This document shows positions 9,068-33,463 of a stretch of DNA of 43,035 bases, piece after piece. A program made the translations under genes and the position numbers. Every line of letters starts with the position of its first letter. Within the stretch, counting starts at the first letter, position 1. Under the pieces are notes generated by a model. The model was given only the letters and a program-made list of their open reading frames with translations. It had not been told where the DNA came from and ran no database searches. Source of the DNA: Actinomycetota bacterium (lineage in GTDB: Bacteria > Actinomycetota > Actinomycetes > S36-B12); assembly GCA_009699705.1 (NCBI GenBank), contig WLNQ01000001.1:1-43035 (forward strand), in the 5' to 3' direction.

Positions 9068-9331
9068 CTGACCCAGCTAAAACCGGTCATGGTGGGATGA
9101 CTTGCGTCTTTGCAACAACAATTCACCACTCTCGCACGCACGTCGGACTTGGTGTATCCCGTTTATGGGTCAAGTGGAACAGCAGTGTCAGCATTCTTAG
9201 GTGCGCGCAGTTTAAAAATTCCGGACACACGAATACAGCGATGCGCTCACACGTTTTCGGGAGGACTACTGCCACAATTTGCCTCAAGCCCAGGCGGATT
9301 TCGTTTGGGCATCACTCTGAAAGGGCGCACA

Positions 9332-13903: not shown

Positions 13904-14058
13904 ATGCCGCGTCTTGGGCCTTGTATGGGAGTAGGTGGCAGAACTACCCCCTACTCATGCAAAGGGTTCGCAACTGTCGGGTTCGACCTAGACAGTCCAA
14001 CTTGACCCGAATTAGTGTCGTTGTTGCTCCCCATGACTATCAACCTCCAAAAAGGATC

Positions 14059-15726: not shown

Positions 15727-16430
15727 GCATCGCCCAACGAAGTGACGCACGAGTCCTCCAAGCTGTTGCACGTTACGCAACAGCGGGTTTACAGGGCGCG
15801 GATGCCGCTGAGATTATTCGTTGGGCAGCTGATTCATTTGCAGGTCGCGTTGTTGCGACTCAGGCCATGGCAAACACAACCATCTCTCATCTCATCGCAT
15901 CGGTTGCACCAGAAATTCCTGTTGTCTTCCTTGATACTGGTTACCACTTTTCCGAGACGCTCCAAACTCGCGATGACCTCGTAGCCCGCACCAATATCAA
16001 TTTGTTAAGCATCACGCCGACAATGAGCGTGAAAGAACAAGATGATATTTACGGTGAAGATCTTTGGGACCGAGATCCAGACCTTTGCTGCAAATTGCGC
16101 AAAGTAGTGCCGATGGAAGAATCGCTCGTGGGGTACGAAGCTTGGATTACCGGCCTTCGCGTTGCGGCTGCGCCTCATCGTGATGACGTTCCTGTAGTGG
16201 AATACGACGAGAAGCGCGGAGTCTTAAAGATTTCTCCACTATTGAATTGGTCAGATGAAGACCTGCTTCGTTACACGATGGAGAATGACGTACCCGTTAA
16301 TCCGTTGATGTATCAGGGATATCCATCAATTGGTTGCGCCCCTTGCACCGCGCGTGTCGATGCTGGTGCTGATCCACGATCTGGTCGCTGGGCAGGCAAA
16401 GACAAGAACGAATGCGGTTTGCACACATGA
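15723..16430 (+). CDS. cysH: Adenosine 5'-phosphosulfate (APS) reductase, Fe-S type CysH
   Basis: ORF track, 235 aa. PAPS_reduct fold with CCKLRKV, SIGCAPCT and C-terminal KNECGLHT. The CC...CxxC set marks the Fe-S APS-reductase subgroup. ATGA overlap with sirA (15723-15726). Confidence 0.9.
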   Translation: MSIAQRSDARVLQAVARYATAGLQGADAAEIIRWAADSFAGRVVATQAMANTTISHLIASVAPEIPVVFLDTGYHFSETLQTRDDLVARTNINLLSITPTMSVKEQDDIYGEDLWDRDPDLCCKLRKVVPMEESLVGYEAWITGLRVAAAPHRDDVPVVEYDEKRGVLKISPLLNWSDEDLLRYTMENDVPVNPLMYQGYPSIGCAPCTARVDAGADPRSGRWAGKDKNECGLHT

Positions 16431-17644
16431 GTAGTTACCCAATCTCACTCAACCTTGCCGGGAAACGAGTTGTAGTTATTGGTGCGGGAAGTGTGGCTGC
16501 ACGAAGAGTCATCTCCTTGATCGAAGCTGGTGCACGTGTGTTGGTCATATCCCCAAGCAGCAACTCTCGGATTGCAGAATTGGCGCAAGCAGGATCGCTC
16601 GAGTTCGTCGAACGCACCTATTTCAAGGGTGACCTTGACGGTGCTTGGCTCGTACACGCAGCGACCAATGACGCGCAGGTAAACGAACGAGTTGCCGCCG
16701 ATGCCGATGCGCAAGGTACTTGGTGCATCCGAGCAGATAAAGCAATGTTGTCGGAAGCTTGGACTCCAGCCTCAACTCGCGTAGATGAAATCACCGTGGC
16801 TGTAACAGCTGGCGGGGATCCACTCCGTGCCATTGCAATTCGTGATGCCATCGCCGAGCAACTCTCGCAAGGTTTGCTGCCTATTCGCCGGGTTCGGCCT
16901 ACTGATGGCCACGTTGTACTCATTGGCGGCGGTCCTGGCGATCCAGACCTCATCACCGTACGCGGCCGCCGCGAGCTCGCAAAAGCTGATGTAGTTGTCT
17001 TTGACCGCCTCGGGCCCACTTCGCTCCTTGACACTCTTTCCGCTGACGTCGAGCAGATTGAAGCCGGCAAACGTCCAGGACATCACACTTTGACCCAAGA
17101 TGAAATAAACGCAGTGATCGTTGATCGCGCACTCAAGGGCAAGCGGGTAGTTCGACTAAAAGGCGGAGATCCGTTTGTATTCGGTCGCGGCTCTGAGGAA
17201 GTTCAGGCTTGTATCGCTGCTGGAGTAACAGTTGAAGTGATTCCCGGCATCAGTTCTGCCGTTGCAGGGCCCGCAGCTGCCGGCATTCCAGTGACGCATC
17301 GCGGCCTAGCAAACGGTTATGTGGTGATCACTGGCCATCAGCTTCAAGACCTCACTGCACTAGCTCAACTTGATTTAACTCTCGTTGTCTTGATGGGAGT
17401 AGCAACCCTTCCTGAACTCACCTCGGGTTTGATGCAAGCAGGGAAGTCTTCTTCCACACCCGTTGCACTCATTGAACAAGCTTCAACACCTCACCAAAGA
17501 GTGACGGTGGGTACCCTTTCCACAATTTGTGCGACTGCTTCATCAGTGGGCGTGCGAAACCCAGCCGTCATTGTCATTGGTGATGTGGTCGCGGTTCCAA
17601 ACTTGCTTGCTGCTCAATCAGCACTTGCCCAAAGCATTCGCTAG
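16427..17644 (+). CDS. cysG: Siroheme synthase, CysG-type fusion (precorrin-2 dehydrogenase/ferrochelatase N-domain + uroporphyrinogen-III C-methyltransferase)
   Basis: Part of ORF 16412..17644. ATG 16427 gives an ATGA overlap with the cysH stop. N-domain LAGKRVVVIGAGSVAARRV (NAD binding); C-domain VVLIGGGPGDPDLITVRG (SUMT signature). Confidence 0.85.
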   Translation: MSSYPISLNLAGKRVVVIGAGSVAARRVISLIEAGARVLVISPSSNSRIAELAQAGSLEFVERTYFKGDLDGAWLVHAATNDAQVNERVAADADAQGTWCIRADKAMLSEAWTPASTRVDEITVAVTAGGDPLRAIAIRDAIAEQLSQGLLPIRRVRPTDGHVVLIGGGPGDPDLITVRGRRELAKADVVVFDRLGPTSLLDTLSADVEQIEAGKRPGHHTLTQDEINAVIVDRALKGKRVVRLKGGDPFVFGRGSEEVQACIAAGVTVEVIPGISSAVAGPAAAGIPVTHRGLANGYVVITGHQLQDLTALAQLDLTLVVLMGVATLPELTSGLMQAGKSSSTPVALIEQASTPHQRVTVGTLSTICATASSVGVRNPAVIVIGDVVAVPNLLAAQSALAQSIR

Positions 17645-17646
17645 CA

Positions 17647-18345
17647 ATGAGCTCTCTCGTCGTGCTGCTCGCGCATGGCAGCCCAGATCCTCGATCAAGT
17701 CAAGCAGCATGCGATGTCGCTCAACGTCTGGAAACCAGGCTCGCAGGGCCAATTGTGCGAGTCGCCTATCTTGATCACGATTGGCCGACGCTGACTGCAG
17801 CAATTGGCCGCGCCCTGGATTCAGGTGAAATTTCCACAGTCCAAGTCTTGCCCCTGTTGCTGAGCCAGGCCTCTCATGCTTTACGTGACGTGCCGGCAGC
17901 CGTTGCCCGCGCCGAGCGTGACCATCGCTTCAAGATCAGTGTCGGTCAAACCATCGGCATGCAACTCACGCTCGCACTCGCACTCGATTCCCAATTTGAG
18001 GCCGGCGCCCCGATTGTTCTGGCTTGGGCGGGAGGACGTACTGCCTTAGCTCAGGCGGCTACTCAAATCTTGGTTCAAGAATGGCATGACGCGACAGGCA
18101 GAGAAATTGTCGCTGCGGCATCCAGCGAGTCTGGAGACCATCTGGCTCAGGCGGCTGCTGAGCTCCTGAAAAGAACACAACGCCGCCCGGGTTTTGCTAC
18201 TTTCACCCTTTTTCCGGGGATTTTGGCTGACCAAGTAGCTAAGGCAGCAAGCGCAGCGGGCCTTGCGGCAACGGGTCCCCTCTATGAATCCCCCGCGTTA
18301 ATCGAAATTTTGAACACTCGCCTTTCGCAAATCCCTCCCCTCTAG
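17647..18345 (+). CDS. cbiX: Sirohydrochlorin chelatase, CbiX/SirB family
   Basis: ORF track, 232 aa. VVLLAHGSPDPRSS is the typical CbiX N-terminal His motif. It starts 2 nt after the cysG stop. Confidence 0.75.
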   Translation: MSSLVVLLAHGSPDPRSSQAACDVAQRLETRLAGPIVRVAYLDHDWPTLTAAIGRALDSGEISTVQVLPLLLSQASHALRDVPAAVARAERDHRFKISVGQTIGMQLTLALALDSQFEAGAPIVLAWAGGRTALAQAATQILVQEWHDATGREIVAAASSESGDHLAQAAAELLKRTQRRPGFATFTLFPGILADQVAKAASAAGLAATGPLYESPALIEILNTRLSQIPPL

Positions 18346-18392: not shown

Positions 18393-19442
18393 GTGGATCT
18401 TGTAGAACTTCGCCGTCATGACTACGCATTGGACGAGATCAGTCAAGAGGTGCTCGTTGCCTTTGGCGATTTCTTCAGAGATCAATGTCCAAGTTCGCTG
18501 GTTCGGGAATCCCAACCTGTTGGTTTTAGCCAAGAACTCTGGGATCGCTTGGTCGAGATGGGCACGACAACTATGGGCCTTCCGGAGTCGGTCGGGGGCG
18601 ACGGTGCCGGAATGGTGGAACTTGCACTCGTTGCTGAGGAGTTTGGCCGCGCCGTTGCGCCAGTCCCATATATAGAACACGTGGTCACTTCCCGTGCGTT
18701 GGCACGAGCAAATAATCCAGCACTTGCGGACGTCATCGCTGCTGCCGCGAATGGCTCGCGCATCCTTGCCTTAGCCAGCGCACCCGTGATGCCGGGAACG
18801 AAGCAACTTATTCCAGCAGGTGCTATCGCCAGAGATGTGCTTGCGATGGTGGGCGATGCACTCGTGCTTTATAGCGCTGACACCCCACCCGCTCATGTAC
18901 CTAACCAAGGCAGCACTCCCCTTGCGTGGTGGGATCTGTTCTCGTTGCCAAATCGCACTGTTGTTGCAACAGGCGAAGAGGCTCTCGCAATTTATACGCG
19001 AGCACACGATGAGCGCATGGTGCTTACCGCTAGCGCGCTAGTCGGCCTGACTGAATATGCGCTCGGCCTCACCGTTGAGTTCACGAAAACTCGCGAGACC
19101 ATGGGTGTGCTGATTTCCACTCTTCAAGGCGTCGCTTTCCCACTGACAGATATCGCCACCAATATCGCTGGAGCGAGAAATATTGCCCGCAAAGCGGCTT
19201 GGTTCTTGGACTTTGATCCGGAAACTAGACCAGAACTTCCCGCAATCGCTTTGGTTTACGCGGCACAGACAGCAACTCAAGGCACTCAGCAAGCTGCTCA
19301 CTTACAAGGCGGCTTGGGTTTCACTGTTGAGAATGACATCAGTTTGTATTTTCTTCGAAGTAAAGGTTGGGGTTCCCTCGCCGGAGATCCCACAGCTCAT
19401 CTAGCAGCTATCGGCAAGCACGTTTTGTCGTCGGTCAATTAG
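18393..19442 (+). CDS. Acyl-CoA dehydrogenase-fold protein lacking the FAD/substrate S/T-E-P-x2-G-S-D motif (probable non-catalytic partner subunit)
   Basis: ORF track, 349 aa (GTG start, ggagg 8 nt upstream). It has ACAD-like N- and C-terminal helices (...HLQGGLGFTVENDISLYFLRSKGW...). At the position of the SEPxxGSD motif it reads ILALASAPVMPGTKQ. Confidence 0.7.
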   Translation: MDLVELRRHDYALDEISQEVLVAFGDFFRDQCPSSLVRESQPVGFSQELWDRLVEMGTTTMGLPESVGGDGAGMVELALVAEEFGRAVAPVPYIEHVVTSRALARANNPALADVIAAAANGSRILALASAPVMPGTKQLIPAGAIARDVLAMVGDALVLYSADTPPAHVPNQGSTPLAWWDLFSLPNRTVVATGEEALAIYTRAHDERMVLTASALVGLTEYALGLTVEFTKTRETMGVLISTLQGVAFPLTDIATNIAGARNIARKAAWFLDFDPETRPELPAIALVYAAQTATQGTQQAAHLQGGLGFTVENDISLYFLRSKGWGSLAGDPTAHLAAIGKHVLSSVN

Positions 19443-19467: not shown

Positions 19468-20682
19468 ATGGATTTCGGATTCGTAGAACTCAGTGCACAA
19501 GATCGTGCGCTTCAGCAAGAGATTCGTGAATTTCTTGCTGAACTATTCACTCCCGATGTGTTCGCTCTTGAACATGAAACAGGTAGTGGCTTTAACGCCA
19601 AGGTCTACGAAGCGTTAGGAGCCAGGGGTTGGCTTTACCCCTCCCTACCCGTGGAGCAAGGTGGCGCCGGATTTACCGCGCTACAAAACCGCATCATGGA
19701 ATTGGAACTGGATCGTCAAGATGCTCGGGTAATGATGATGAAGGGAACTTCTTCGTTACCAATGGCAGCGATTCGTAAATACATGCCAGCTGAAATTGCT
19801 GACCCCATCCTCAAAGAGTGTGCAGCCGGTCGAGCCGTGGTGTGTTTGGGGTATTCCGAACCTGATGGTGGTTCCGATATTGCAAATGCCAAAGTTCGCG
19901 CTGTACAAGATGGCGAAATGTGGGCCATTAATGGTTCCAAAATGTGGACCACTGGCGCCCACATTTCCACGTACACCTTCTTAATTACGCGAACAGACCC
20001 AGAAGCTCCAAAACACAAGGGAATCACCATGTTCTTGGTGCCTTTGCACTCAGAAGGCGTCACGATTCAGGCGATCCGAACCTTCAGCGGTGAACGCACC
20101 AACATTGTTTTCTATGAAGATGTACAAGTCCACGACAGCATGCGTATCGGTGGAGTGAATAACGGTTGGACCGTTCTGCACGGTCCGCTTGATGAAGAAC
20201 ACAGCATCGGGATAGACAGCAACGGCGGACTCACCGATGTCTCTGTCGGTGTCAGCTTCAGTCGAGTTCTTGGCGCTTCAATCAACGAGGTCGCACAGTG
20301 GGCATTGAAGACCGCCAGCGCTGACGGCAAGAGCATGGCCGAAGACACTCGCGTGCTTGAGCGTTTGGGTTCTGCCATGGTTGATTACGAGGCTGGTATG
20401 TGCACACCCGGACCAATGGGTCGAGTCAAGTCATCTGATGGTCTGGTGAAGCAAGCCGCTCAGTTACAGGATCTTGTTGGTCCAGTGGGGCTTTTGCCGA
20501 TGAATGCCGAAGGTGGAATTGGTGTCGGTGATATCGAATACGCGCATCGCTTTGCACAGGGCACTGCAACCTACGGCGGCACTGTCGAAGTCTTCCGAAC
20601 CATTATTGCTCAGCATGTGTTGGGACTACCTAAAGCGCAATTGCCCGGTGCGAAAGTTTTCATGGCGGGCAAAAAGAAGTAA
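19468..20682 (+). CDS. Acyl-CoA dehydrogenase (FAD-binding subunit)
   Basis: ORF track, 404 aa. GYSEPDGGSDIANAKVRA motif and C-terminal ATYGGTVEVFRTIIAQHVLGLP. It starts 25 nt downstream of the preceding ACAD-fold gene, with agggag upstream. Confidence 0.85.
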   Translation: MDFGFVELSAQDRALQQEIREFLAELFTPDVFALEHETGSGFNAKVYEALGARGWLYPSLPVEQGGAGFTALQNRIMELELDRQDARVMMMKGTSSLPMAAIRKYMPAEIADPILKECAAGRAVVCLGYSEPDGGSDIANAKVRAVQDGEMWAINGSKMWTTGAHISTYTFLITRTDPEAPKHKGITMFLVPLHSEGVTIQAIRTFSGERTNIVFYEDVQVHDSMRIGGVNNGWTVLHGPLDEEHSIGIDSNGGLTDVSVGVSFSRVLGASINEVAQWALKTASADGKSMAEDTRVLERLGSAMVDYEAGMCTPGPMGRVKSSDGLVKQAAQLQDLVGPVGLLPMNAEGGIGVGDIEYAHRFAQGTATYGGTVEVFRTIIAQHVLGLPKAQLPGAKVFMAGKKK

Positions 20683-22049: not shown

Positions 22050-22697
22050 ATGCCCCATACTTGGGCTGTGTCTCCTCCCGCTGATGATCCCGTTGAACTT
22101 GCCGTGAATCGCGCCCTGAAGCCCATGCGCGACGATGCCGTTCGAGATGTTGAGGCGATCTTGGATGCAACCCTGAAGGCAGCGGAGTTGTCGGCTCCGG
22201 TCGCTCCTCGAGTCGCTGACATTGTCGCCCTGGCTGGCACATCAAACCAAGCCTTTTATCGTTATTTCACTGGCAAAGATGACCTCATGCAGGCAGTGAT
22301 GGCGCGAGGTCTGCGACGAGTGCATGCCTACTTAGACCATCGCATGTCCAAGGTTGATGATCCTGCCATGAAAATTGAACTATGGGTTCGCGGCATATTG
22401 ACCCAAGCCACTCACCAAACTGCCGCGCGACAAGGTGCTGCCGTAGCGGAAATCTTTGCAGGCGCTGGCGGCGGAGTCGATGAGCGAACGAGCGAAGCCA
22501 CCTTGGCTCTAAAGGATCTCTTGATTGCACCACTTGAGGCTCTTGGCAGCAACTTCCCTGAATTGGATGCGGCAGTGATTCGCGAAGCGGCAATGGGCAC
22601 GATGCGCGATCACATGACTGCCCACACCAGTCCGACTCCCCAAGAAAGTGATCATCTCGTTGCCTTTTGCATTCGTGGCATCGGTGTGGAGGCCTAA
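22050..22697 (+). CDS. TetR family transcriptional regulator
   Basis: ORF track, 215 aa. HTH segment RVADIVALAGTSNQAFYRYFTGKDDLMQAV. Divergent from the pirin gene. The start could be the internal ATG 22125. Confidence 0.8.
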   Translation: MPHTWAVSPPADDPVELAVNRALKPMRDDAVRDVEAILDATLKAAELSAPVAPRVADIVALAGTSNQAFYRYFTGKDDLMQAVMARGLRRVHAYLDHRMSKVDDPAMKIELWVRGILTQATHQTAARQGAAVAEIFAGAGGGVDERTSEATLALKDLLIAPLEALGSNFPELDAAVIREAAMGTMRDHMTAHTSPTPQESDHLVAFCIRGIGVEA

Positions 22698-22699
22698 CC

Positions 22700-23500
22700 G
22701 TGTTTGAGCTCGATCAATCAATTGAGGTAAACGGCACAACGGTGCGATATGCAGTGAACGGACAAGGCTCTCGACATCTGATGCTGGTGCATGGCGCCCG
22801 GGCTCATCAACTTTGGTTTTATCGAATGTTTGAAGATCTACACCGTGACTGGCGAGTGATCACTGTGGATTTGAGCGGGCACGGAATGAGCGGTCATCGT
22901 GCTTTCTATTCTGTTGAACAATGGTCCGCCGAACTTGCTGCAGTATTGCGTGCAGTAACGAGTGAGCCCGCCGTCGTGGCTGGGCACAGCATGGGTTCTC
23001 GCATCGCAGTTGCCCTCGCCGCTAATGAACCAGAACTTGTGAGCGAACTTATTATGTTTGACGGCAACATTCGTTCCCCCGAGAAATTCACTCAACCTGG
23101 TGAGCGACCAGCGCCAACGGAACCAAAATATTACGAATCTAAAGATGCTGCAGTGCAACGTTTTCGTCTCGTGCCCATGCAAGTGGGTCCTGATGCTGAG
23201 CATTTGATTCCGCTGGCCGAATACTCCGCTATCCAAAAGCCTCAAGGATGGTCCTGGCGTCACGATTGGAAAAGCCCTGCCGAGCCTTACGACCGATACA
23301 TCAACGCACTAGTCCCCAAACTTACTCAGCCCGTGCGTTTTGTTTACGGAACAGCAAGCCAGGTCAGTGGCGTTGAAGTAGCGGCCTACTTTGTCGAACT
23401 CGCAACCACACAAGTTGAAGTCATTGCCATTGAAGGCGGCGGCCACCACCTAATGCTTGATAAGCCTGCGGAATGCATCGCTGTCATTCAGGGCAGATAA
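22700..23500 (+). CDS. Alpha/beta hydrolase
   Basis: Part of ORF 22667..23500. I prefer GTG 22700, just after the TetR stop. HLMLVHGARAH (oxyanion region), nucleophile elbow GHSMGS, and a C-terminal GGGHHLMLDKP His motif. Confidence 0.8.
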   Translation: MFELDQSIEVNGTTVRYAVNGQGSRHLMLVHGARAHQLWFYRMFEDLHRDWRVITVDLSGHGMSGHRAFYSVEQWSAELAAVLRAVTSEPAVVAGHSMGSRIAVALAANEPELVSELIMFDGNIRSPEKFTQPGERPAPTEPKYYESKDAAVQRFRLVPMQVGPDAEHLIPLAEYSAIQKPQGWSWRHDWKSPAEPYDRYINALVPKLTQPVRFVYGTASQVSGVEVAAYFVELATTQVEVIAIEGGGHHLMLDKPAECIAVIQGR

Positions 23501-24455
23501 GTACTTTGCCGGTAGATTTGCGCGAGGCAACACATTCCAAAGCATCAATTGCCTGTTCCAATCTAAACACGTCAGACACATGAGGAACTAAGCCTTGCTT
23601 CGTCATTTCGTTGAGAATTTCATCGCCCTTCGCCACTTCCTCTGGGAGATGCTCAGCCACAGTTCGAATCTCAAAGCCTTTGATGATTCCGCCCTTAAGT
23701 AGCGGAAGATTCAGCGGTATTCGTGGAATGTCTCCATCGGCGAAGCCAACAACCACGAATCGACCACCCCAAGCAATCGCCCGAAACGCCTCTTCCGAGT
23801 AAGAACCGCCCACCGGATCAATCACTACATCGGCTCCCGATCCAGTGATTTCCTTGATTCGTTCTTTCAAGTTTTCCGTTGTGTAATTGATCCCTGCAAC
23901 GGCACCCAGGTTCTTGCACACGGCAAGACGTTCATCACTCGACGCTACGGCAATAACCTTTGCCCCTAAACGTGTTGCGAGATCAACTGCAGCTGTGCCA
24001 ACTCCCCCGGCAGCACCAAGTACCACGACCCAATCATTTTCTTTAAGTTCACCGATCGTGACAAGCGCGTGGTAGGAAGTGCGATACGTGACGCTAAAGG
24101 CGGCTGCCTGCGCAATGGTGAGGCCAGCGGGGATCGGCTTCAAAGTCGTGGCTTGAACACAAATTTGTTCAGCAAAACAACCTACGAACGAGCCACCCAT
24201 CACCAGATCACCTGGCTTAACATTCGAGACGTTGCTACCGACACTGAGAACTTCGCCTGCGAATTCACTACCCGGAGTAAACGGAACAGGAATCGACACC
24301 TGATAGCGGTTCTCAATAATTAAGAGATCAGGAAAATTGATCGCGGCTGCATGAATGGCCACGACGGCTTCATCTGCTCCGGCTTCCGGGTTGGGAAGAT
24401 CCTTCATAACCAAGGATGACGGCGGGCCATATTGCTCGCAGACAAGAGCGCGCAT
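23484..24455 (-). CDS. NADPH:quinone oxidoreductase / zeta-crystallin-like medium-chain reductase
   Basis: ORF track, 323 aa. GSEFAGEV and VVVLGAAGGVGTAAVDLA cofactor motif. The 3' end overlaps the convergent hydrolase gene by 17 nt. Confidence 0.85.
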   Translation of the reverse strand: MRALVCEQYGPPSSLVMKDLPNPEAGADEAVVAIHAAAINFPDLLIIENRYQVSIPVPFTPGSEFAGEVLSVGSNVSNVKPGDLVMGGSFVGCFAEQICVQATTLKPIPAGLTIAQAAAFSVTYRTSYHALVTIGELKENDWVVVLGAAGGVGTAAVDLATRLGAKVIAVASSDERLAVCKNLGAVAGINYTTENLKERIKEITGSGADVVIDPVGGSYSEEAFRAIAWGGRFVVVGFADGDIPRIPLNLPLLKGGIIKGFEIRTVAEHLPEEVAKGDEILNEMTKQGLVPHVSDVFRLEQAIDALECVASRKSTGKVLICPE

Positions 24456-24568
24456 GCGTATATTTCCTTACGTATGTGATCAGAGTTGCCTAATTACCTC
24501 ACACCATTGGGTGAGGCCGCAGCCATTTCAACGGCTTTGCTGAGCGCTGAAGGGTCCACTGACGAAAC

Positions 24569-24610
24569 AAGGCGGCTATCCAGTTATATGTATCGCTGGA
24601 TAGCCGCCTT
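24569..24610 (-). terminator. Perfect 15-bp stem-loop downstream of the ACAD gene (possible terminator or RNA-stability element)
   Basis: aaggcggctatccag (24569-24583) pairs with ctggatagccgcctt (24596-24610), with a 12-nt loop. On the minus strand it sits 17 nt after the stop at 24627, followed only by a weak GTTTCGTC tract. Confidence 0.45.
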
Positions 24611-24626
24611 GATCAGGCTGTCTTTA

Positions 24627-25931
24627 CTAGTTTTCTGGAACTATCTGGGTGAAGGACTCACCAAGTAGTTCGAGTTCAGCCGCAGCTGTGAGGTTAGGAA
24701 TCAAGGCTGATGGCCAAACACTGTCTGTCGCCTTGTACTTGCGCAGCATCTGCCTAGCCACCGTGATCTGGTGCACTTCAGTTGGGCCATCTGCAAGACC
24801 AAGCACGATTCCACTGTTCAGGAAGCCCATGAATGGCAATTCTTGAGAAGTACCGATAGCGCCATGTAACTGGATCGCACGTAGCGCGATTGCCTGCATC
24901 ACTCGAGCAGTTTGCACCTTGATAGCAGCGATATCGAGTCGAACCAGCTTGTAGTCATTCAATTTGTCAATCTTCCAAGCACAGTGCAGAACTAGGAGTC
25001 GAAATGATGCCAATTCGATATATGAATCAGCAAGCATCATTTGCACTGACTGCTTTTCAGATAGAAGCTGCCCCTTCGTGTAGCGCGACAATGCACGTTC
25101 TGCCATGAGATCGATCGCGCGCTGCGCATTACCAACGGTACGCATGGCATGGTGCACCCGGCCACCGCCTAATCGTGTTTGTGCGACCGCAAATGCCTGT
25201 CCAACTCCGCCAAGAATTGCTGACTCGTGGATGCGTACGTTGTTGTATTTGATCAAAGCTTCAGACGTATCTTCTGGGCCTTCGCCGGCCATGCCAAAGT
25301 TGTACTGAATCTCGATACCAGGGGTCTCTGCTGGCAACATGAACATCGTCATCTTTTCAGTGATGACTGCATCTGCATCGGTTACGACCATCACGATGAA
25401 GAACTTGGCCCAGCGCGCATTGGATGACCACACCTTGCGACCATTAATGATCCAGTGGTCGCCATCCTTGACTGCGCTTGTCGTGAAGATACCTGGATCT
25501 GCGCCGCCCTGCGGCTCAGTCATTGAGAAACACGAGACGATGTCGCCGTCAAGTAGCGGCTTGAGGTATCGCTCTTTTTGCTCCGCAGTTCCGAAATGGG
25601 CAATGATTTCTGCGTTACCTGTGTCGGGCGCTTGAGTTCCGAAAATACGTGGTGCCCAACGTGACGTTCCGAGAATTTCATTGAGTAGAGCCAACTTCAG
25701 CTGGCCATATCCCTGACCGCCAAGATCAGGGCCAAGATGGCAGGCCCATAGCTTCATGTCACGAACTTCTTGCTTAAGCGGGTTGATGATTGCGGCTTGC
25801 TGCGCAGTCATGTCCTTGTATGTGTCATGCGGCCATAACAGATCAACCTTCGCCACCTTGTTTGTGACGAAATCCTTTGTCCAATCGAGAAGTTTCTGAA
25901 ATTCCGGTTCTACTTCAAAATCGATTGCCAT
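24627..25931 (-). CDS. Acyl-CoA dehydrogenase, FadE2 / ACAD10-ACAD11-like clade
   Basis: ORF track, 434 aa. FSMTEPQGGADPG, RLGGGRVHHAMRTVG and C-terminal LGLADGPTEVHQITVARQ (in place of the canonical Y-E-G-T region) are hallmarks I recall for the FadE2/ACAD10/11 group. AAGGAG RBS upstream. Confidence 0.85.
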   Translation of the reverse strand: MAIDFEVEPEFQKLLDWTKDFVTNKVAKVDLLWPHDTYKDMTAQQAAIINPLKQEVRDMKLWACHLGPDLGGQGYGQLKLALLNEILGTSRWAPRIFGTQAPDTGNAEIIAHFGTAEQKERYLKPLLDGDIVSCFSMTEPQGGADPGIFTTSAVKDGDHWIINGRKVWSSNARWAKFFIVMVVTDADAVITEKMTMFMLPAETPGIEIQYNFGMAGEGPEDTSEALIKYNNVRIHESAILGGVGQAFAVAQTRLGGGRVHHAMRTVGNAQRAIDLMAERALSRYTKGQLLSEKQSVQMMLADSYIELASFRLLVLHCAWKIDKLNDYKLVRLDIAAIKVQTARVMQAIALRAIQLHGAIGTSQELPFMGFLNSGIVLGLADGPTEVHQITVARQMLRKYKATDSVWPSALIPNLTAAAELELLGESFTQIVPEN

Positions 25932-25949
25932 GAGTCTCTCCTTTAGTTC

Positions 25950-26003
25950 GTGAAAGTGTGAGTTCTGATGTTGTGAAAGTGCGTACTTTCCTGCAATTTG
26001 CGC
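25950..26003. promoter_or_regulatory. Repeat cluster in the SDR-ACAD intergenic gap: 9-bp direct repeat, 6-4-6 inverted repeat and a GCAATTTGCGC element
   Basis: gtgaaagtg occurs at 25950-25958 and 25973-25981 (23-bp spacing). gaaagt-gcgt-actttc is at 25975-25990. gcaatttgcgc at 25993-26003 is the near reverse complement of gcgcaaatttgc at 27888-27899. Confidence 0.35.
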
Positions 26004-26021
26004 CTAGCCAAAACTGCTTCC

Positions 26022-26786
26022 TTATGGCATCCCGCCGTCGACTCGGATAGTTGCACACGAGGTGTAGCTTGAGGCATCTGAAGCGAGATACAAAACTGCG
26101 CCGACGATCTCTGGTGGATCACCGATGCGTTTCATTGCGATGCGTTGCATGCCTGGTTTCATCGCTTCAAGATCCCAAGCTTTGGAGATGTCAGACATCA
26201 TCGTTCCGGACATCACAGTGTTGACGCGAACCTGCGGACCAAAGGCAGCTGCAAATCCTTCAGTCATAGTGTTCAAGCCGGCTTTAGCACCTGCGTAAGG
26301 AATAATTGTGGGTGAAGGGCGAATGGATCCCGACGAGCTCACATTGATAATTGAGCCTTTGCCAGCGGCCTGCATGCGCTCGCCCATCAATGCGGTGAGT
26401 CGATATGGCCCTTTGAAGTTCAGGTTCATGACACTGTCGAACATCTGCTCAGTGACTTCTGAGTTCTTTTCGTAAATTGGTGACATGCCAGCGTTATTCA
26501 CCAACACATCAACCTTGCCAAACTTCGCATAGACGGCATCCACGAAAGGTTCGATTTCATCCCAACGCCCGACGTGAAGTCCGTAAGCCATGGTTTGGCG
26601 ACCAAACTTTTGTGCAATGTCATCCGCGACGGTGACGCAGTTTTCAAGTTTGCGACTGGCAATGACCACATGGGCACCTGCTTGGGCACAGCCGTAAGCC
26701 ATTTCCTTACCCAACCCGCGACTTCCGCCAGTGATGACTACGACCCTGTCGGTCAGATCGAAGACCCCATCGAGGTAGCTACTCAT
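26022..26786 (-). CDS. Short-chain dehydrogenase/reductase (SDR)
   Basis: ORF track, 254 aa. VITGGSRGLG (TGxxxGxG) and YAGAKAG (YxxxK). ATGA overlap with the upstream kinase gene (26783-26786). Confidence 0.9.
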   Translation of the reverse strand: MSSYLDGVFDLTDRVVVITGGSRGLGKEMAYGCAQAGAHVVIASRKLENCVTVADDIAQKFGRQTMAYGLHVGRWDEIEPFVDAVYAKFGKVDVLVNNAGMSPIYEKNSEVTEQMFDSVMNLNFKGPYRLTALMGERMQAAGKGSIINVSSSGSIRPSPTIIPYAGAKAGLNTMTEGFAAAFGPQVRVNTVMSGTMMSDISKAWDLEAMKPGMQRIAMKRIGDPPEIVGAVLYLASDASSYTSCATIRVDGGMP

Positions 26787-27832
26787 TTCACTCCATTCGG
26801 CATAGTTGCAGCCAGACCAGCGGCCTGACTCATCAATTCAAGAACTAGTGGCCCAAAGCCCGCGAGCGAAGGATTGTCGAGCTTCTCCCGCACTACTCGT
26901 GCATAGGACATCTCCAACACAATGGCGAGCTTCCATCGAGCCAGCACAAGGTAGTAATTGAAGTCCGCAGTGCTGCGTCCACTCAACTTCTCGTAATGTG
27001 CCAACAACTCCTCAAGCGAGGCCTGACCTTCGGTGGTCTTTTTGATGTTGGTGTTATCTGCATCGCCAGTTGGTCCCCAGTCGCGCAAGGCCCAGGCAAG
27101 ATCGAGTAGCGGATCGCCAATAGTTGTCATTTCCCAGTCGACAACTGCAGCCAGACCTGCTGGTACGTCGTTAGTGAACATGATGTTTGCAAACTGGTAA
27201 TCACCATGCATGATGCCCGGCTCCCACGCGCGCGGCTTGTTGTTATCCAGCCATGCAGTCGTCTCGTCCAGACCTGGAATCTCGCGGAACTTGTATCCAT
27301 CGAGAAATGAAGTCCATCGACCAACCTGTCGCTCGTGAAAGTTGTCCGGGCGCCCGAAGCCCTCAAGCCCGACAGCTTTCCAATCCACAGCAGCCAGTTT
27401 TGCTGCGCCTTCAACAAGTGCGTAGCCAAGCGAAGGGCGAAGACTTGGGTCAGATGCGTACGGCTCAGGCCAACCGCCAGAAGCCATCGACCAGCCAATG
27501 ATCTGTTTCATTAAGTAGAAAGGAATGCCAAGCACATCGGGATCTGGGCAGCCAACGACAAGGTCTCCGTGCGGCACATTAGTGCCAGCGATCGCGGCAA
27601 GGAATGTCATCTCGCGCTTAATTCCATCTGCTCGACCTGAATCGCGCGGCGGAATACGCATCACCGTGCGGTCTCCGCCGCGATCTACGAGATAAAGCTC
27701 GTTCTGTGATCCACCAGAAATCTTGGTCAACTCTGGTGTCTCACCTTTGCCAGGGCGATCCACGGAATCCATCCAGACGGTGAGCCGCTGCAGCTCCTGC
27801 GGTGTGAATGGGTGCGTTGGGGTATTAGTCAT
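26783..27832 (-). CDS. Phosphotransferase (APH/choline-kinase-like kinase fold), ACAD-associated type
   Basis: ORF track, 349 aa. Catalytic loop IMHGDYQFANIMF (H-x-D-x4-N) and metal-binding VVDWEMTTIGDPLLDLAW. Confidence 0.8.
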   Translation of the reverse strand: MTNTPTHPFTPQELQRLTVWMDSVDRPGKGETPELTKISGGSQNELYLVDRGGDRTVMRIPPRDSGRADGIKREMTFLAAIAGTNVPHGDLVVGCPDPDVLGIPFYLMKQIIGWSMASGGWPEPYASDPSLRPSLGYALVEGAAKLAAVDWKAVGLEGFGRPDNFHERQVGRWTSFLDGYKFREIPGLDETTAWLDNNKPRAWEPGIMHGDYQFANIMFTNDVPAGLAAVVDWEMTTIGDPLLDLAWALRDWGPTGDADNTNIKKTTEGQASLEELLAHYEKLSGRSTADFNYYLVLARWKLAIVLEMSYARVVREKLDNPSLAGFGPLVLELMSQAAGLAATMPNGVK

Positions 27833-27836
27833 GCTG

Positions 27837-27899
27837 GAAGAATATCATTCTGGCATTCGGGAATTCTATTCTTCAGACAAATTATTTGCGCAAATTTGC
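27837..27899. promoter_or_regulatory. Candidate operator / 5'-leader structure upstream of the kinase operon
   Basis: 8-bp inverted repeat gaagaata (27837-27844) / tattcttc (27867-27874), 4 nt from the start codon. Overlapping perfect palindromes atttgcgcaaat (27884-27895) and gcaaatttgc (27890-27899). Confidence 0.35.
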
Positions 27900-28522: not shown

Positions 28523-29281
28523 ATGCAGGTTGTTGTTGAGTTCCTTATTGCAATCGTGGCGGGCGTCCTAGCGGGTGCAACTGGTGGCGGCGGCGGCATG
28601 CTCTTTGTTCCCATTTTGGTTTACAGTGGATTAAGCCCCGTTACCGCAGTTGCCACCAGCAATGTTGGCATCTGCATTACGACTGCCACGGCAACGGTGA
28701 GTAATGCTCGAGCCAAGCAAGTGCCTTGGCGCCGCGTGTTCATGATTGGCATTCCAGCGATTATCGTTGCCCCACTTGGTGCCTGGGTCGCTCATCAATT
28801 ACCTGGAACGGCGTTACTGCTTGGGTTTGCAGCGATCAATATTCTCAACGTGATACTCACCAATCGAAGAGTGAATGCGGAAGTTGAAGAAAATGATTTG
28901 CATACCAATGATGCCAACGTTGTTCAAGTTGGCATCACCGGTGGCTCCGGCGGTTTCATGGGAGGGCTATTTGGGATCGGTGGCGGTCTCATCACTGTGC
29001 CTCTGCAAATTCTTTGGCTCAACACGCCAATAAAAGTTGCAGCTCGAGTATCACTAGCGGTCATCGTGATGTCGAGCATGGCTGCACTTGTCGGGCACAT
29101 GCTCAATCATGGCGAAATCAATTGGACTTCAGGACTGGTCCTAGGTCTAGGCGGGCTGATCGGCGCGCCAATCGGAAGCCGGCTCCTGCGACGCATCACA
29201 CCAAAAACTGCTACTCGTTTATTGCAAAGCGTGCTTATTGGTGTTTCAATCCTGGTGACCTATAAGGCCTTTAACCAGTAA
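28523..29281 (+). CDS. TSUP (TauE/SafE) family sulfite/anion exporter-like membrane protein
   Basis: ORF track, 252 aa. Two internal repeats, each opening with a Gly-rich helix (GATGGGGGMLFVPIL and GLFGIGGGLITVPL). About 8 predicted TM helices. Confidence 0.8.
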   Translation: MQVVVEFLIAIVAGVLAGATGGGGGMLFVPILVYSGLSPVTAVATSNVGICITTATATVSNARAKQVPWRRVFMIGIPAIIVAPLGAWVAHQLPGTALLLGFAAINILNVILTNRRVNAEVEENDLHTNDANVVQVGITGGSGGFMGGLFGIGGGLITVPLQILWLNTPIKVAARVSLAVIVMSSMAALVGHMLNHGEINWTSGLVLGLGGLIGAPIGSRLLRRITPKTATRLLQSVLIGVSILVTYKAFNQ

Positions 29282-30056: not shown

Positions 30057-32006
30057 CTAGCGCGACCCTCTTGAACGCACATAGTCACTCACTACATAGT
30101 CGCCAAGTTTTTCACTCGATGCAGCGAGAACCCGGCCACCATTTCTGCGGGCCATTTGATCTAAGAATCGTTCCAAACTTGGATCGTCACCCAGTCGGAA
30201 CCAGGAAATGGGCACTCGGCGTCGCGTCATCAAATCAATTTGGGCGACCGTAAGAGCAATAGTTTCATCGCTTGGCGGATAGTCGAAGCAGGAGTACCCC
30301 TCTTCATCTATATGCGCCGTTGGCTCACCGTCAGTGACCACCATGACAACTCGTTGCGCCCCGTGGTGCTTGTCCAGAAAACGCCCAGCCAGCATCAGTG
30401 CGTGATGCAGATTTGTGCCTTGGATGTAGCTCGCTTCCAAATCTGGGAGTTCGTGTGGCTTCACTACTTGAGCAATGTTCGCAAAGGAAATAATTTCCAG
30501 CGCGTCAAGCGGGTACGCACTTTGCGCAAGTGAGTGCAAAGCCAGCGCCATGGTTTTTGCGGAACGCCAGGTATCGCTCATCACCATAGAAAAAGACTGA
30601 TCGATCAGCAGCGCGACGGCTGCCCGGGTGCGGGTTTCAGTTTCATGGACTTCAAAATCTTCGGCTGAGAGAGTGAGTTTGGATGAACCACTCATGATTT
30701 TTCTATTCACCGCATTACGCACAGTTGTCACCACATCGATTGGCTGCTCGTCTCCGAATTGCCATTGGCGGGTCATCCCAGTGATTTCACCCGAGGCACC
30801 TGAGCGATGAACGCTGTGGTCGCCACGCTGTGAGGCATCGAGTGAAGAAAATACTTCTTTAAGTGCTGTTCGTCCGATGCGACGAACAGCCTTGGGCGTC
30901 AACTCAAGGCGATCGCCATCGCGTTGAAGATATCCGTCTTCTTCAAGTTGCTTTTGAATCTCTCGCATGGCGCGCAGGTCATCAGCTGCCTGGCGTCCTA
31001 GAGCTCTGGCTACTGCTGCCTCATCGATATTGTCCAGATTAGCTCGCGCGTCACTGTCTGAGAGTTGATCCATGAGTGACTCAAGATCAGCCAGTTCTGC
31101 GAGTGCCTGGGTTGCATCTGGTAAGCCGAGTGGCTCATCACCACCCATCTGCTGCTGACCTGTCCAAGAGAATTCAGGACGCATGGTTTGCAAGTTTTCT
31201 TGAAGTCGCGACATTTCGTCTTGAAGACCCATGTCAGACAATGCCTGAGCCATGGCCTCTGCCAATTCAGCGCGCTGCTCTGGACTTAGCGACTGCATCA
31301 TGCGCTGCATTGCAGCTGCTTGGCGGGCTAGCTCGTCAATAAATTCAGGCAAAGTGTCGGGAGCATCTGGAAAGAACTCGCTGTGCTTTTCTTTGAAGTC
31401 TTCATAATCCTGTGACGCATCTTCACCCCGACGATGCTTTTCCAGCATCGCGTTGAGGTCCTGCATCATCTCCTTCATCGCGGCTTTAGATTCAGGAGTG
31501 TTCAGTTCCTGCATGCCTTGAGTCATGTTCTTAAACTGCTGATCAAGTACATCGCGCTGGAGTCGATCTTTCAGCTGATCGAAGGACCGCTGAGCTTGAG
31601 GTGACTGCCAGTCGTAATCAGCTAGTTGTTGGACTGCTCGTCCAACCTCGTCTGGCACGGTGTCCAGCATCGCTTCGCGAAAGCGAGCATCGTCAGATGG
31701 ATCAGGGAAAAGTGCCGTGCGCTCCTGAGTGAGCGCGTCGTCGAGTAGTTGTCGAAGGTCGGTCAAGAGACCATCCATCCGCCCAGATTTTTCTAACTCT
31801 TTGCGACGCTGCTGAGCCTTCCTGAACATCTCGCGTAGGCCGCTGCGGTCCTTTAAGCCGTCACGAAACATGTCACGGAACGCATCGTTCAGCGATTGAC
31901 CATCAAGGAGTCGACGACCGATCTCATCAACTCCACCGCCGGAATCGGTTGGCGCAGAAAGTGGGTCTGGTCCGTCATGAAAAGAACCGTAGGTAAACCG
32001 GCTCAT
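30057..32006 (-). CDS. VWA domain protein with a long acidic, Met/Gln-rich helical N-terminal region (BchD-like C-terminus)
   Basis: ORF track, 649 aa. MIDAS motif ALLIDQSFSM (DxSxS) and VVMVVTDGEPTA. The central region is rich in E/D/M/Q (e.g. AAMKEMMQDLNAMLEKH, AAAMQRMMQSLSPEQRAELAEAMAQ). ATGA overlap with the AAA+ gene (32003-32006). Confidence 0.8.
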   Translation of the reverse strand: MSRFTYGSFHDGPDPLSAPTDSGGGVDEIGRRLLDGQSLNDAFRDMFRDGLKDRSGLREMFRKAQQRRKELEKSGRMDGLLTDLRQLLDDALTQERTALFPDPSDDARFREAMLDTVPDEVGRAVQQLADYDWQSPQAQRSFDQLKDRLQRDVLDQQFKNMTQGMQELNTPESKAAMKEMMQDLNAMLEKHRRGEDASQDYEDFKEKHSEFFPDAPDTLPEFIDELARQAAAMQRMMQSLSPEQRAELAEAMAQALSDMGLQDEMSRLQENLQTMRPEFSWTGQQQMGGDEPLGLPDATQALAELADLESLMDQLSDSDARANLDNIDEAAVARALGRQAADDLRAMREIQKQLEEDGYLQRDGDRLELTPKAVRRIGRTALKEVFSSLDASQRGDHSVHRSGASGEITGMTRQWQFGDEQPIDVVTTVRNAVNRKIMSGSSKLTLSAEDFEVHETETRTRAAVALLIDQSFSMVMSDTWRSAKTMALALHSLAQSAYPLDALEIISFANIAQVVKPHELPDLEASYIQGTNLHHALMLAGRFLDKHHGAQRVVMVVTDGEPTAHIDEEGYSCFDYPPSDETIALTVAQIDLMTRRRVPISWFRLGDDPSLERFLDQMARRNGGRVLAASSEKLGDYVVSDYVRSRGSR

Positions 32007-33463
32007 GAAGCTCCGTAGCGAATTACCCCATCAACAGCGTCTTTGTCGATGCGACGAGTCAGCCACAATCCTTCAATTGCGAATTCCACACACGCAGCAG
32101 CCAGGCCCGGCGACTCTGCAAGCGAAGGCTCAACCGCTTTCATCAACTTGCCCAAACCTTCGAACTGCCCCAACTCACCTAGGAGCGCATCGCCAGCCGT
32201 CTCATCACCAGTCTGCAAGGTGTTTCCGGCATCAAACCATTCAACCAACGAGGTGAGCACTGGACGAATCTCATTACTGCCGAGCAACTGGCGCCAAGTT
32301 TCAGCGGTGGCTTTACGGGCAAGATGAATGAGCAGCTCTTGCTCACGGCCCTCTTCACTCACATCAAATTCCACTTTGCCACGCAGTGTCGGCACGACAC
32401 CCATGAGATCGCCGACTCGAGCAACTGGCTCCTTCTCGCCGGTGATCGCGGAGCGACGAAGCGCTGCACCAGAAAGTGCTTCCGTGCACGCAATTGCAAA
32501 ACGCGCAGACACACCACTTCGTTGGTCAATCGATGACGAGCTGCGCACTTCAGTGGTGAAGCGAGCAACGATGTCCAGCAGGTGGTCTGGAACCACTGCT
32601 TGGATATTCGCTTCCTGACGAATCAGATTTACCTCATCATCAAGGTCTAGTGGGTAATGGGTGCGAATTTCCGCACCGAAACGATCCTTCAGCGGTGTGA
32701 TAATCCGTCCGCGGTTTGTGTAGTCCTCAGGGTTTGCACTCGCCACGACTAATAGGTCCAGTGGCAGACGCAGGTTGTATCCACGTACTTGGATATCTCG
32801 CTCTTCCAAGACGTTTAGCAGGGCAACCTGGATACGTTCGGCGAGGTCGGGAAGTTCGTTCATCGCGAAAATTCCGCGATTCGTGCGGGGAACCAGTCCG
32901 TAATGAATGGTTTCTGGATCTCCAAGGCTTCGACCTTCGGCAATCTTCACCGGGTCAACATCGCCGATGAGATCAGCAACCGAGGTATCCGGTGTTGCAA
33001 GCTTCTCACCAAATCGCTGTGTGCGATGACGCCAAGAAACCGAGAGATCATCACCGAGTTCTGCGAGACGACGTCGACAACCAGCACAAATCGGCTCGAG
33101 CGGATCGTCATTAATCTCGCAGCCCTCAACAACTGGAATCCACTCGTCAAGTAACTGTGTCAATGTGCGAATCAAGCGAGTCTTTCCTTGTCCGCGCTCG
33201 CCAAGAAGAACCAGGTCATGGCCGGCAAGAATCGATCGCTCGACCTGAGGAATCACGGTGTCTTGGAAGCCCACTATGCCGGGCAGGCTTGGCTCACCCG
33301 CGCGTAGGCGCGCTAGAAGATTCGCCTGCATCTCCTGCTTAACCGTGCGCGATTGAAAGCCGGAGGCCACCAAAGCACCCAAGGTGCGTGGCAGATCGGC
33401 AGGGACGGCGGGTGCAAAATTAGTCACCCGCTGACCGTACGTTGCTTGAGGGAATTGCGCCAC
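32003..33463 (-). CDS. AAA+ ATPase, BchI/ChlI (Mg-chelatase I subunit)-like
   Basis: ORF track, 486 aa (GTG start with GAGGGA upstream). Walker A LLGERGQGKT. Then NRGIFAMNELPDL...LLNVLEERDIQVRG...VVASANPEDY...LKDRFG, collinear with the BchI/ChlI core as I recall it. Confidence 0.8.
   Translation of the reverse strand: MAQFPQATYGQRVTNFAPAVPADLPRTLGALVASGFQSRTVKQEMQANLLARLRAGEPSLPGIVGFQDTVIPQVERSILAGHDLVLLGERGQGKTRLIRTLTQLLDEWIPVVEGCEINDDPLEPICAGCRRRLAELGDDLSVSWRHRTQRFGEKLATPDTSVADLIGDVDPVKIAEGRSLGDPETIHYGLVPRTNRGIFAMNELPDLAERIQVALLNVLEERDIQVRGYNLRLPLDLLVVASANPEDYTNRGRIITPLKDRFGAEIRTHYPLDLDDEVNLIRQEANIQAVVPDHLLDIVARFTTEVRSSSSIDQRSGVSARFAIACTEALSGAALRRSAITGEKEPVARVGDLMGVVPTLRGKVEFDVSEEGREQELLIHLARKATAETWRQLLGSNEIRPVLTSLVEWFDAGNTLQTGDETAGDALLGELGQFEGLGKLMKAVEPSLAESPGLAAACVEFAIEGLWLTRRIDKDAVDGVIRYGAS

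Follow-up and report, generated by a model that had tools for sequence, protein, structure and literature searches.

A conserved actinobacterial gene cluster encoding a sister subfamily of the ACAD10/11-type kinase and acyl-CoA dehydrogenase pair

The window analyzed here is a 43,035-nt stretch of contig WLNQ01000001.1 (assembly GCA_009699705.1, Actinomycetota bacterium, S36-B12; positions 1-43,035 of the forward strand). According to the listing and translation of its open reading frames (ORFs), the minus strand carries three co-directional genes encoding an APH-fold small-molecule kinase of the ACAD10/11-N / LvaA type (26783..27832, 349 aa), a classical short-chain dehydrogenase/reductase (SDR; 26022..26786, 254 aa), and an ACAD10/11-LvaC-like acyl-CoA dehydrogenase (ACAD)-family protein (24627..25931, 434 aa). 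By sequence, the kinase and the ACAD form a well-supported sister subfamily and do not belong to the core FadE2/LvaC/ACAD10-11 clade. A first-pass annotation of the same DNA had described the trio as a unit for the reduction, phosphorylation, and elimination of 4-oxo/4-hydroxyacyl-CoAs. The coordinates that it gave (24627-27832) agree exactly with the ORFs (24627-25931, 26022-26786, and 26783-27832), the motifs that it listed (HGDYQFAN, DWE, TGxxxGxG, YxxxK, and LGLADGPTEVH) were all found in the translations, and the ATGA coupling that it proposed between the kinase and SDR genes was read directly at 26783-26786 (GTG AAA TGA / ATG AGT). The kinase and SDR genes overlap by 4 nt, and the SDR and ACAD genes are separated by a 90-bp spacer, with a Shine-Dalgarno sequence (AAGGAG) 7 nt before the ACAD ATG; this arrangement leaves no room for an LvaB-type gene beside the kinase. 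The absence of an LvaB-like subunit and a CoA ligase from the neighborhood, also part of the first-pass annotation, was borne out by the dense packing of the genes and by a scan of the 41 ORFs of at least 140 aa across the 43-kb window, none of which contained an AMP-binding domain as expected for an LvaE-type ligase.

The kinase was assigned to PF01636 (APH) with E = 6.7e-34 in a hidden Markov model search, as had been anticipated. Its catalytic loop HGDYQFAN spans residues 209-216 (H209-G-D211...N216), and the metal site DWE spans residues 232-234 (D232-W-E). The best PDB sequence matches obtained with phmmer were 9o56 (135 bits), 3dxp (120 bits), and the ACAD11 kinase domain (88 bits). Alignment with 9o56 and 8v3v identified further key residues, namely R59 in β3, R73-E74 in αC, and R168, which is equivalent to R176 of ACAD11; the β3 Arg replaces a Lys and pairs with the αC Glu, and the CoA-contacting arginines are kept. 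R59, R73-E74, R168, D211/N216, and D232-W-E were invariant among 17 orthologues. In the ACAD11 kinase domain, the determinants are D220, N225, and CoA-contacting arginines including R176 (PMC12440821). Based on these residues, the protein is predicted to be a 4-hydroxyacyl-CoA kinase. No NCBIfam equivalog was reached, and the matches to the APH(3') and Mph models were weak (E ~1e-4 to 1e-5). A resistance-kinase reading was rejected, since the APH(3'), Mph, and homoserine-kinase models scored only 19-23 bits against cut-offs of 205-650; the first-pass annotation had named clustering with aminoglycoside or homoserine kinases as evidence that would count against its proposal.

The ACAD contains the three ACAD domains (Pfam N, M, and C). 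The segment RLGGGRVHHAMR at residues 253-264 provides R253, H260-H261, and R264, and its motif reads HAMR rather than HCMR, as in 4hr3. In LGLADGPTEVH, D381 stands in place of the canonical catalytic Glu of Y-E-G-T, and LADGPTEVH aligns with LADGPDEVH of ACAD11 and 4hr3. The equivalent catalytic Asp of human ACAD10 is D1040, and the APDTGN motif, at residues 101-106 of the window ACAD, includes P463 in human ACAD11. R253, H261, R264, and D381 correspond to R626, H634, R637, and D753 of mouse ACAD11. In ACAD11, R626, H634, and R637 (the 'HCMR' motif) and the catalytic D753 are determinants of 4-phosphoacyl-CoA turnover that have been shown or modelled to be essential (PMC12440821), and the APDTGN and R-L-G-P-G motifs are shared only by ACAD10/11 and LvaC and are absent from other ACADs (PMC11342911). 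When the window ACAD was aligned with 73 kinase-neighboring ACADs from 82 related loci, the signature residues were invariant in all 74 sequences; most of the mycobacterial proteins keep the key residues as RLAGGRLHHAMR and DGPTEAH. The best PDB sequence matches were 4hr3 from Mycobacterium abscessus (225 bits) and ACAD11 (2wbi and 8v3u, ~204-205 bits), followed by SCAD (149 bits). A Foldseek search with the AlphaFold2 model (predicted local distance difference test, pLDDT, 84.6) returned 4hr3, 2wbi, and 8v3u in this order and then MCAD and SCAD, with template modelling (TM) scores of 0.79-0.88. The ACAD is, by these signature residues, a predicted 4-phosphoacyl-CoA phosphate-eliminating enzyme. 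A second copy of the signature in the window was ruled out, as it was absent from the other three ACAD genes and no second APH motif was present.

The SDR matched adh_short with E = 2e-46 (adh_short / adh_short_C2 ~1e-47) and has the motifs of a classical member of the family: TGGSRGLG at residues 19-26, NNAG at 97-100, serines at 150-152, and Y164/K168 within YAGAK (164-168). In SDRs, an Arg in the Gly motif (here Arg23) and a basic pair after β2 (here Arg45-Lys46) point to a preference for NADP(H), and the motifs of the window protein suggest an NADPH-type enzyme. By analogy with LvaD and from its tight linkage to the kinase, it is predicted to be an NADPH-dependent 4-oxoacyl-CoA reductase. 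Downstream of the ACAD on the minus strand lies a gene for a PIG3 / zeta-crystallin-like NADPH:quinone (enone) oxidoreductase of the Zn-independent medium-chain dehydrogenase/reductase (MDR) type (23484..24455, 323 aa), with ADH_N and ADH_zinc_N domains. It reached 231 bits with TIGR02824, under the cut-off of 297, and its best PDB match was 4eye from M. abscessus (191 bits).

Conservation of the neighborhood was examined in 80 genome loci (943 kb) retrieved via the kinase, in which neighbors were scored by tblastn and the ACAD was counted when it lay within 6 kb. A signature ACAD was found in 72 of the 80 loci, and SDR orthologues (57-90% identity) adjoin the kinase in 63, so that the adjacency of kinase, SDR, and ACAD is not due to chance; the synteny, which the first-pass annotation had suggested examining across the Actinomycetota, held in several lineages. 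Homologues of the PIG3-like oxidoreductase (42-82% identity) occurred in 48 loci, usually after the ACAD or after ACAD and TetR, and homologues of the TetR regulator of the window (39-79% identity) occurred inside or beside the cluster in 44. The oxidoreductase gene is a conserved accessory gene of the cluster. The linkage of the trio is therefore real, but the unit as first described had left unlisted the oxidoreductase, the TetR gene, and the operator discussed below. The order kinase-SDR-ACAD-TetR-oxidoreductase was shared by 40 loci, each of which carries the label Mycobacterium, Mycolicibacter, or uncultured Actinomycetota, and the order ACAD-kinase-SDR was seen in eight Acidimicrobiales-type loci. 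The window and locus L002 have TetR and hydrolase genes running rightward and oxidoreductase, ACAD, SDR, and kinase genes running leftward. Synteny extended over Mycobacterium/Mycolicibacter, Frankia, Modestobacter, Trebonia, Acidimicrobiia, and Ca. Nanopelagicales into the Proteobacteria, and the genetic coupling of kinase and ACAD was also found on plasmids of Rhodococcus, Massilia, and Novosphingobium. Four of the eight loci without the ACAD are contigs that end too early.

Two further observations concern the kinase genes of these loci. Most loci from Mycobacterium and related uncultured Actinomycetota (L018-L076) carry, ~0.8-4 kb upstream of the kinase on the opposite strand, a second APH-family paralogue that is ~31-36% identical to the window kinase and falls outside its clade in the kinase tree. 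In three Acidimicrobiales loci (L011-L013), the kinase directly follows the apparent 3' end of a tRNA gene.

The first-pass annotation had placed the ACAD in the FadE2/ACAD10-11 clade and had made this placement a test of its proposal; the sequence comparisons and neighbor-joining trees (100 bootstraps) put it in a sister clade instead. Members of the core clade are 54-56% identical to one another in the ACAD (human ACAD11, the Burkholderia cenocepacia ACAD, and 4hr3) and 44-53% in the kinase (ACAD11, 3dxp, and Burkholderia), whereas the window proteins are 36-38% and 27-30% identical to them, respectively. In the ACAD tree, the core clade was supported by a bootstrap value of 100, the window clade by 99, and the union of both against other ACADs by 100; in the kinase tree, the core clade (ACAD11, 3dxp, and Burkholderia) and the window clade each received 100. 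The matching trees of kinase and ACAD argue for a co-evolving functional pair, and the sister-clade placement of both enzymes means that their chemistry is an extrapolation from one subfamily to another. Most of the window clade is actinobacterial, with members in Ca. Nanopelagicales relatives, Mycobacterium, Mycolicibacter, Nocardia, Nocardioides, Modestobacter, Trebonia, Frankia, Streptomyces, Rhodococcus, and Acidimicrobiia, and it also occurs on plasmids of Massilia, Variovorax, Novosphingobium, Sphingomonas, and Caulobacter. Protein searches returned 5,447 homologues of the kinase (E <= 1e-10) and at least 8,000 matches to the ACAD family (E <= 1e-20), of which the clade is a part. In the databases, these proteins bear generic names such as 'aminoglycoside phosphotransferase family', 'phosphotransferase family', or 'acyl-CoA dehydrogenase family protein'.

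The TetR-family regulator (22050..22697, plus strand; TetR_N E = 3.9e-07) is a probable repressor of the kinase-SDR-ACAD operon. Upstream of the kinase, we found an operator-like palindrome at 27839..27851 (AGAATATCATTCT, a perfect AGAAY-N3-RTTCT located 7-19 nt before the kinase ATG) and a second one with one mismatch at 27860..27872, 21 bp from the first; two palindromes with the same 21-bp spacing are present in L001-L003. In the 943 kb of the 80 loci, the palindrome (G)AGAAY-N3-RTTCT(C) occurred in 52 copies, all within -200 to +40 of a kinase start. It precedes the kinase in the window, L001-L004, L014, and L018-L077, including 42 of the 44 loci with a TetR homologue, and its mycobacterial form reads GGAGAATGCTATTCTCC. 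From this distribution, the palindrome is probably the TetR operator. Within the window, no good copies other than the two preceding the kinase were seen, and none was found upstream of the TetR or the oxidoreductase gene. In the window and L001-L003, the proximal palindrome holds the -10-like hexamer TATTCT (TANNNT) exactly 6 nt before the kinase ATG, and the kinase start has no Shine-Dalgarno sequence; together, these features suggest that the kinase-SDR-ACAD mRNA is leaderless, with its -10 element inside the operator.

A terminator-like hairpin follows the ACAD stop codon (24568..24611, minus strand), with a 16-bp perfect stem and a 12-nt loop followed by TTTCG; its RNA fold has an energy of -32.5 kcal/mol (z = -6.4). 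In L002 (~9196-9245), an equivalent hairpin with a T-run but a different sequence occupies the same place and ends ~15 nt before the oxidoreductase start codon. Given such a strong structure after the ACAD, read-through or a promoter of its own may account for transcription of the oxidoreductase, and instead of stopping transcription fully, the hairpin may terminate it leakily or stabilise the mRNA. A consensus promoter and terminator scan gave nothing above shuffle expectation and missed this hairpin because its loop exceeds 8 nt.

Beside the cluster, an α/β-fold hydrolase gene (22667..23500, plus strand; Abhydrolase_1 E = 6e-20) is co-transcribed with the TetR gene and converges on the MDR gene. 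From its family, the product is possibly an esterase or lactonase, and its membership of the cluster is uncertain: among the 80 loci, it is kept only in the close relative L002 (65% identity), and the clusters of Massilia, Rhodococcus DK17, and Mycolicibacterium thermoresistibile also have α/β hydrolase genes nearby. Two adjoining plus-strand ACAD-family genes (18393-19442 and 19468-20682) are similar to those for the small and the large subunit in heteromeric ACADs, one of them being IpdE2/PimD-like without a middle-domain match and the other PimC-like without a C-terminal-domain match; they are probably an α/β ACAD pair unrelated to the kinase cluster. An assimilatory sulfate-reduction and sirohaem block (13921-18345, plus strand) comprises sulfite reductase, 3'-phosphoadenosine 5'-phosphosulfate (PAPS) reductase, CysG-like methylase, and CbiX genes, and a TauE/SafE sulfite-exporter-family gene (28523-29281) is divergent from the kinase cluster. 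On the minus strand, a gene pair (30057-33463) adjoining a LuxR-family regulator gene and a GGDEF gene encodes a 486-aa protein with weak, sub-threshold similarity to the AAA+ ATPase family, in which no single matched stretch passes the threshold, and a 649-aa protein with a weak VWA-domain match.

We consider the cluster to be a TetR-controlled module that would allow β-oxidation to bypass a 4-oxo or 4-hydroxy group, and the sequence of reduction, phosphorylation, and elimination is the explanation that we favor with moderate confidence. The retained determinants, the tight linkage, and the co-evolution of kinase and ACAD make the two-step bypass of the core-clade enzymes the most likely activity of the window pair. 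Every substrate and reaction in the scheme that follows is predicted from the genes and their families, the conserved determinants, the synteny, the co-evolving clades, and the conserved operator. Where present, the PIG3-like oxidoreductase might saturate an α,β-unsaturated (enone-type) precursor, which is the weakest part of the scheme. The SDR would then reduce a 4-oxoacyl-CoA to the 4-hydroxyacyl-CoA in an NADPH-type reaction, as LvaD does, and the kinase would move the γ-phosphate of ATP to the 4-hydroxyl, giving a 4-phosphoacyl-CoA. From this intermediate, the FAD-containing ACAD would eliminate phosphate without net redox change, with Asp381 acting as the base and Arg253, His261, and Arg264 holding the phosphate, and the resulting 2-enoyl-CoA would enter ordinary β-oxidation. 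TetR would bind the two palindromes overlapping the -10 region of the kinase-SDR-ACAD transcript and may be released by an acyl-CoA or acid ligand.

Several observations weigh against this interpretation. The low identity to assayed or solved members (36-38% for the ACAD and 27-30% for the kinase) implies that the substrate, and even the position of its hydroxyl group, could differ. At the second position after the catalytic Asp, which is Lys or Arg in the core clade (HYDxK / HGDF[KR]), the window kinase has Gln213, which is invariant within its clade. The SDR reaches no NCBIfam equivalog model, and the 41 scanned ORFs of the window contained no acyl-CoA ligase and no hydratase domain, so that activation and the downstream steps must be encoded elsewhere. 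In L001 (metagenome-assembled genome (MAG) UBA11398, 3458-6255), whose kinase is 89% identical to that of the window, the genes are arranged as kinase-SDR-oxidoreductase with a 48-nt spacer instead of the ACAD, which has been lost or relocated unless the contig is misassembled. Four Acidimicrobiales MAG loci (L011, L012, L013, and L015), with kinases 52-53% identical to that of the window, likewise have no signature ACAD within 6 kb. Finally, phosphorylation of 1-O-alkylglycerols in vitro has been reported for prokaryotic members of this kinase family (PMC13596139).

The proposal of reduction, phosphorylation, and elimination is thus supported by the families, the determinant residues, and the synteny of its genes, and it is weakened by the placement of the proteins outside the FadE2/ACAD10-11 clade. 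The separate, strongly supported clade of both enzymes is also the main argument for a different assignment, in which the same chemistry acts on another class of substrates, such as branched, cyclic, or terpenoid- or steroid-derived hydroxyacyl-CoAs, or on another hydroxyl position, with the SDR and the oxidoreductase preparing the substrate. The neighbors vary by lineage and include P450s, SnoaL-like proteins, thiolases, ChsH2-like proteins, and a bile-acid symporter, and the presence of the core-clade 4hr3 together with 4eye in M. abscessus gives a weak hint that actinobacteria may keep both clades. However, all phosphate- and CoA-binding determinants are unchanged, no consistent terpenoid or steroid pathway marker accompanies the cluster, and the streamlined freshwater host favors a common small substrate; we regard a shift of substrate class as rather unlikely.

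The in vitro activity on alkylglycerols, a competing role that was absent from the first-pass annotation, would also suit a lipid-alcohol kinase acting on 1-O-alkyl- or acyl-glycerols, accompanied by an ordinary or unrelated ACAD in a cluster for lipid salvage or remodelling. In a 2026 preprint, several prokaryotic homologues, including the C. thermarum enzyme (9o56), phosphorylated chimyl alcohol in vitro, some of them with stimulation by acetyl-CoA (PMC13596139), and the kinases of L001 and of the four Acidimicrobiales loci without an adjacent ACAD could be read in the same way. Nevertheless, the kinase is tied to, and co-evolves with, an ACAD bearing the Arg/His/Arg residues and the Asp base in 72 of the 80 loci, and the conserved cluster has no glycerolipid genes. 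Where the C. thermarum kinase has an essential Lys (PMC13596139), needed there for alkylglycerol activity, the window kinase has Gln, and a role in lipid-alcohol phosphorylation appears improbable. A meaningless adjacency of a generic aminoglycoside- or macrolide-type kinase, a FabG-like SDR, and a β-oxidation ACAD, for which the generic database names and the weak APH(3')/Mph matches might be cited, is contradicted by the multi-lineage synteny, the translational coupling, the shared operator, the signature residues, and resistance-kinase scores far below the cut-offs, and can hardly be entertained.

Beyond the favored bypass of a 4-oxo or 4-hydroxy group, we tentatively put forward a wider and speculative proposal, to which we would give little weight at present. 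The cluster might be the founding example of a second branch of the phosphorylate-then-eliminate acyl-CoA machinery, widespread in Actinomycetota (many Mycobacterium) and in some Proteobacteria. It would comprise a four-enzyme line (enone reductase, 4-oxo reductase, kinase, and eliminase) under an electrophile- or acyl-CoA-sensing TetR repressor. This line would both detoxify and catabolize 4-oxo-2-enoyl and 4-hydroxy-2-enoyl compounds, such as lipid-peroxidation products of the 4-oxo-2-nonenal and 4-hydroxy-2-nonenal (4-ONE/4-HNE) type and opened γ-lactones, with a scope and role distinct from levulinate catabolism.

At this locus, a kinase and an ACAD form a co-evolving sister pair that has conserved partners of its own (SDR, PIG3-like reductase, TetR, and operator). 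The pair is common in Actinomycetota, including many mycobacteria, yet its annotation goes no further than 'phosphotransferase' and 'acyl-CoA dehydrogenase family protein'. Should the bypass interpretation be correct, annotations would be put right for apparently thousands of genes, a testable regulon would follow from the known operator sequence, and the extent of sequence divergence tolerated by the phosphate-elimination chemistry would become apparent; it would possibly also explain the use of γ-lactones, levulinate-like keto acids, and oxidised lipids by actinobacteria. In the searched literature, which covered the operator sequence, fadE2 with phosphotransferase, and actinobacterial levulinate or 4-hydroxy-acid catabolism, there was no description of the clade, the cluster, or the operator, and no characterized actinobacterial example was found, in line with the first-pass annotation.

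The locus extends recently established biochemistry and introduces no new principle. The kinase-plus-ACAD route for 4-hydroxy acids was established with the lva operon in 2017 and with ACAD10/11 in 2024-25, and to our knowledge all assayed kinase-plus-ACAD enzymes belong to the core clade. ACAD10/11, LvaA/LvaC, and the pair from Burkholderia pseudomallei convert 4-hydroxyacyl-CoA via 4-phosphoacyl-CoA to 2-enoyl-CoA with no net redox change (PMC12440821, PMC11342911). The closest ACAD by both sequence and fold in the PDB is the uncharacterized FadE2-like 4hr3 of M. abscessus, which shares the HHAMR motif with the window ACAD. Since 4hr3 is a core-clade protein that shares 54-56% identity with human ACAD11 and the Burkholderia ACAD but 38% with the window ACAD, the term 'FadE2-type' is only approximately right for the latter.

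Pseudomonas putida's lva operon (lvaR-lvaABCDE, levulinate catabolism), compared here from its published descriptions (PMC12440821, PMC11342911), also brings together, within a single operon, a split kinase with an ACAD-family phosphate eliminase and an SDR, which yields the same order of reduction, phosphorylation, and elimination. The window differs from it in having neither an LvaB-like small protein nor an LvaE CoA ligase, in its TetR regulator and additional PIG3-like oxidoreductase, and in its gene order of kinase-SDR-ACAD. LvaC is 56-62% identical to ACAD10/11 (PMC12440821, PMC11342911) and by this reported value belongs to the core clade, in contrast to the window ACAD with 36-38%. The first-pass annotation was correct that the order differs from that of the lva operon, but the order is not specific to the cluster. 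In B. cenocepacia (L084; NZ_CP091013, 3634-9230), the genes are arranged as histidine phosphatase-kinase-SDR-SDR-ACAD-LysR, with the kinase and ACAD encoded separately and SDR genes between them, as in the window. These Burkholderia proteins are of the core clade (54% identity to ACAD11 for the ACAD and 44% for the kinase, compared with 36% and 29% to the window proteins), and their cluster differs from that of the window in its LysR regulator, its histidine phosphatase, its two SDRs, and the lack of a PIG3-like oxidoreductase. The phosphatase gene beside the kinase gene in this locus recalls the domain order phosphatase-kinase-ACAD of animal ACAD10. In B. pseudomallei, the split kinase and ACAD Q63VL0/Q63VL1 replace the ACAD10 domains in vitro (PMC11342911).

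Mammalian ACAD10 and ACAD11 have the kinase and ACAD fused, whereas the window encodes them as separate polypeptides with the SDR gene between. The window proteins lie in the sister clade at 37% (ACAD) and 27% (kinase) identity, with HAMR for HCMR, DGPTE for DGPDE, Gln213 for Lys/Arg, and no HAD phosphatase domain. Nevertheless, ACAD10/ACAD11 (8v3u/8v3v, 2wbi) have the same two folds, the same ACAD determinants (APDTGN, Arg, His-x-x-Arg, and Asp for Glu), and the same kinase determinants (HxDxxxxN, DWE, β3 Arg with αC Glu, and the CoA-contacting Arg), and they are the closest or near-closest solved structures to the proteins of the window.

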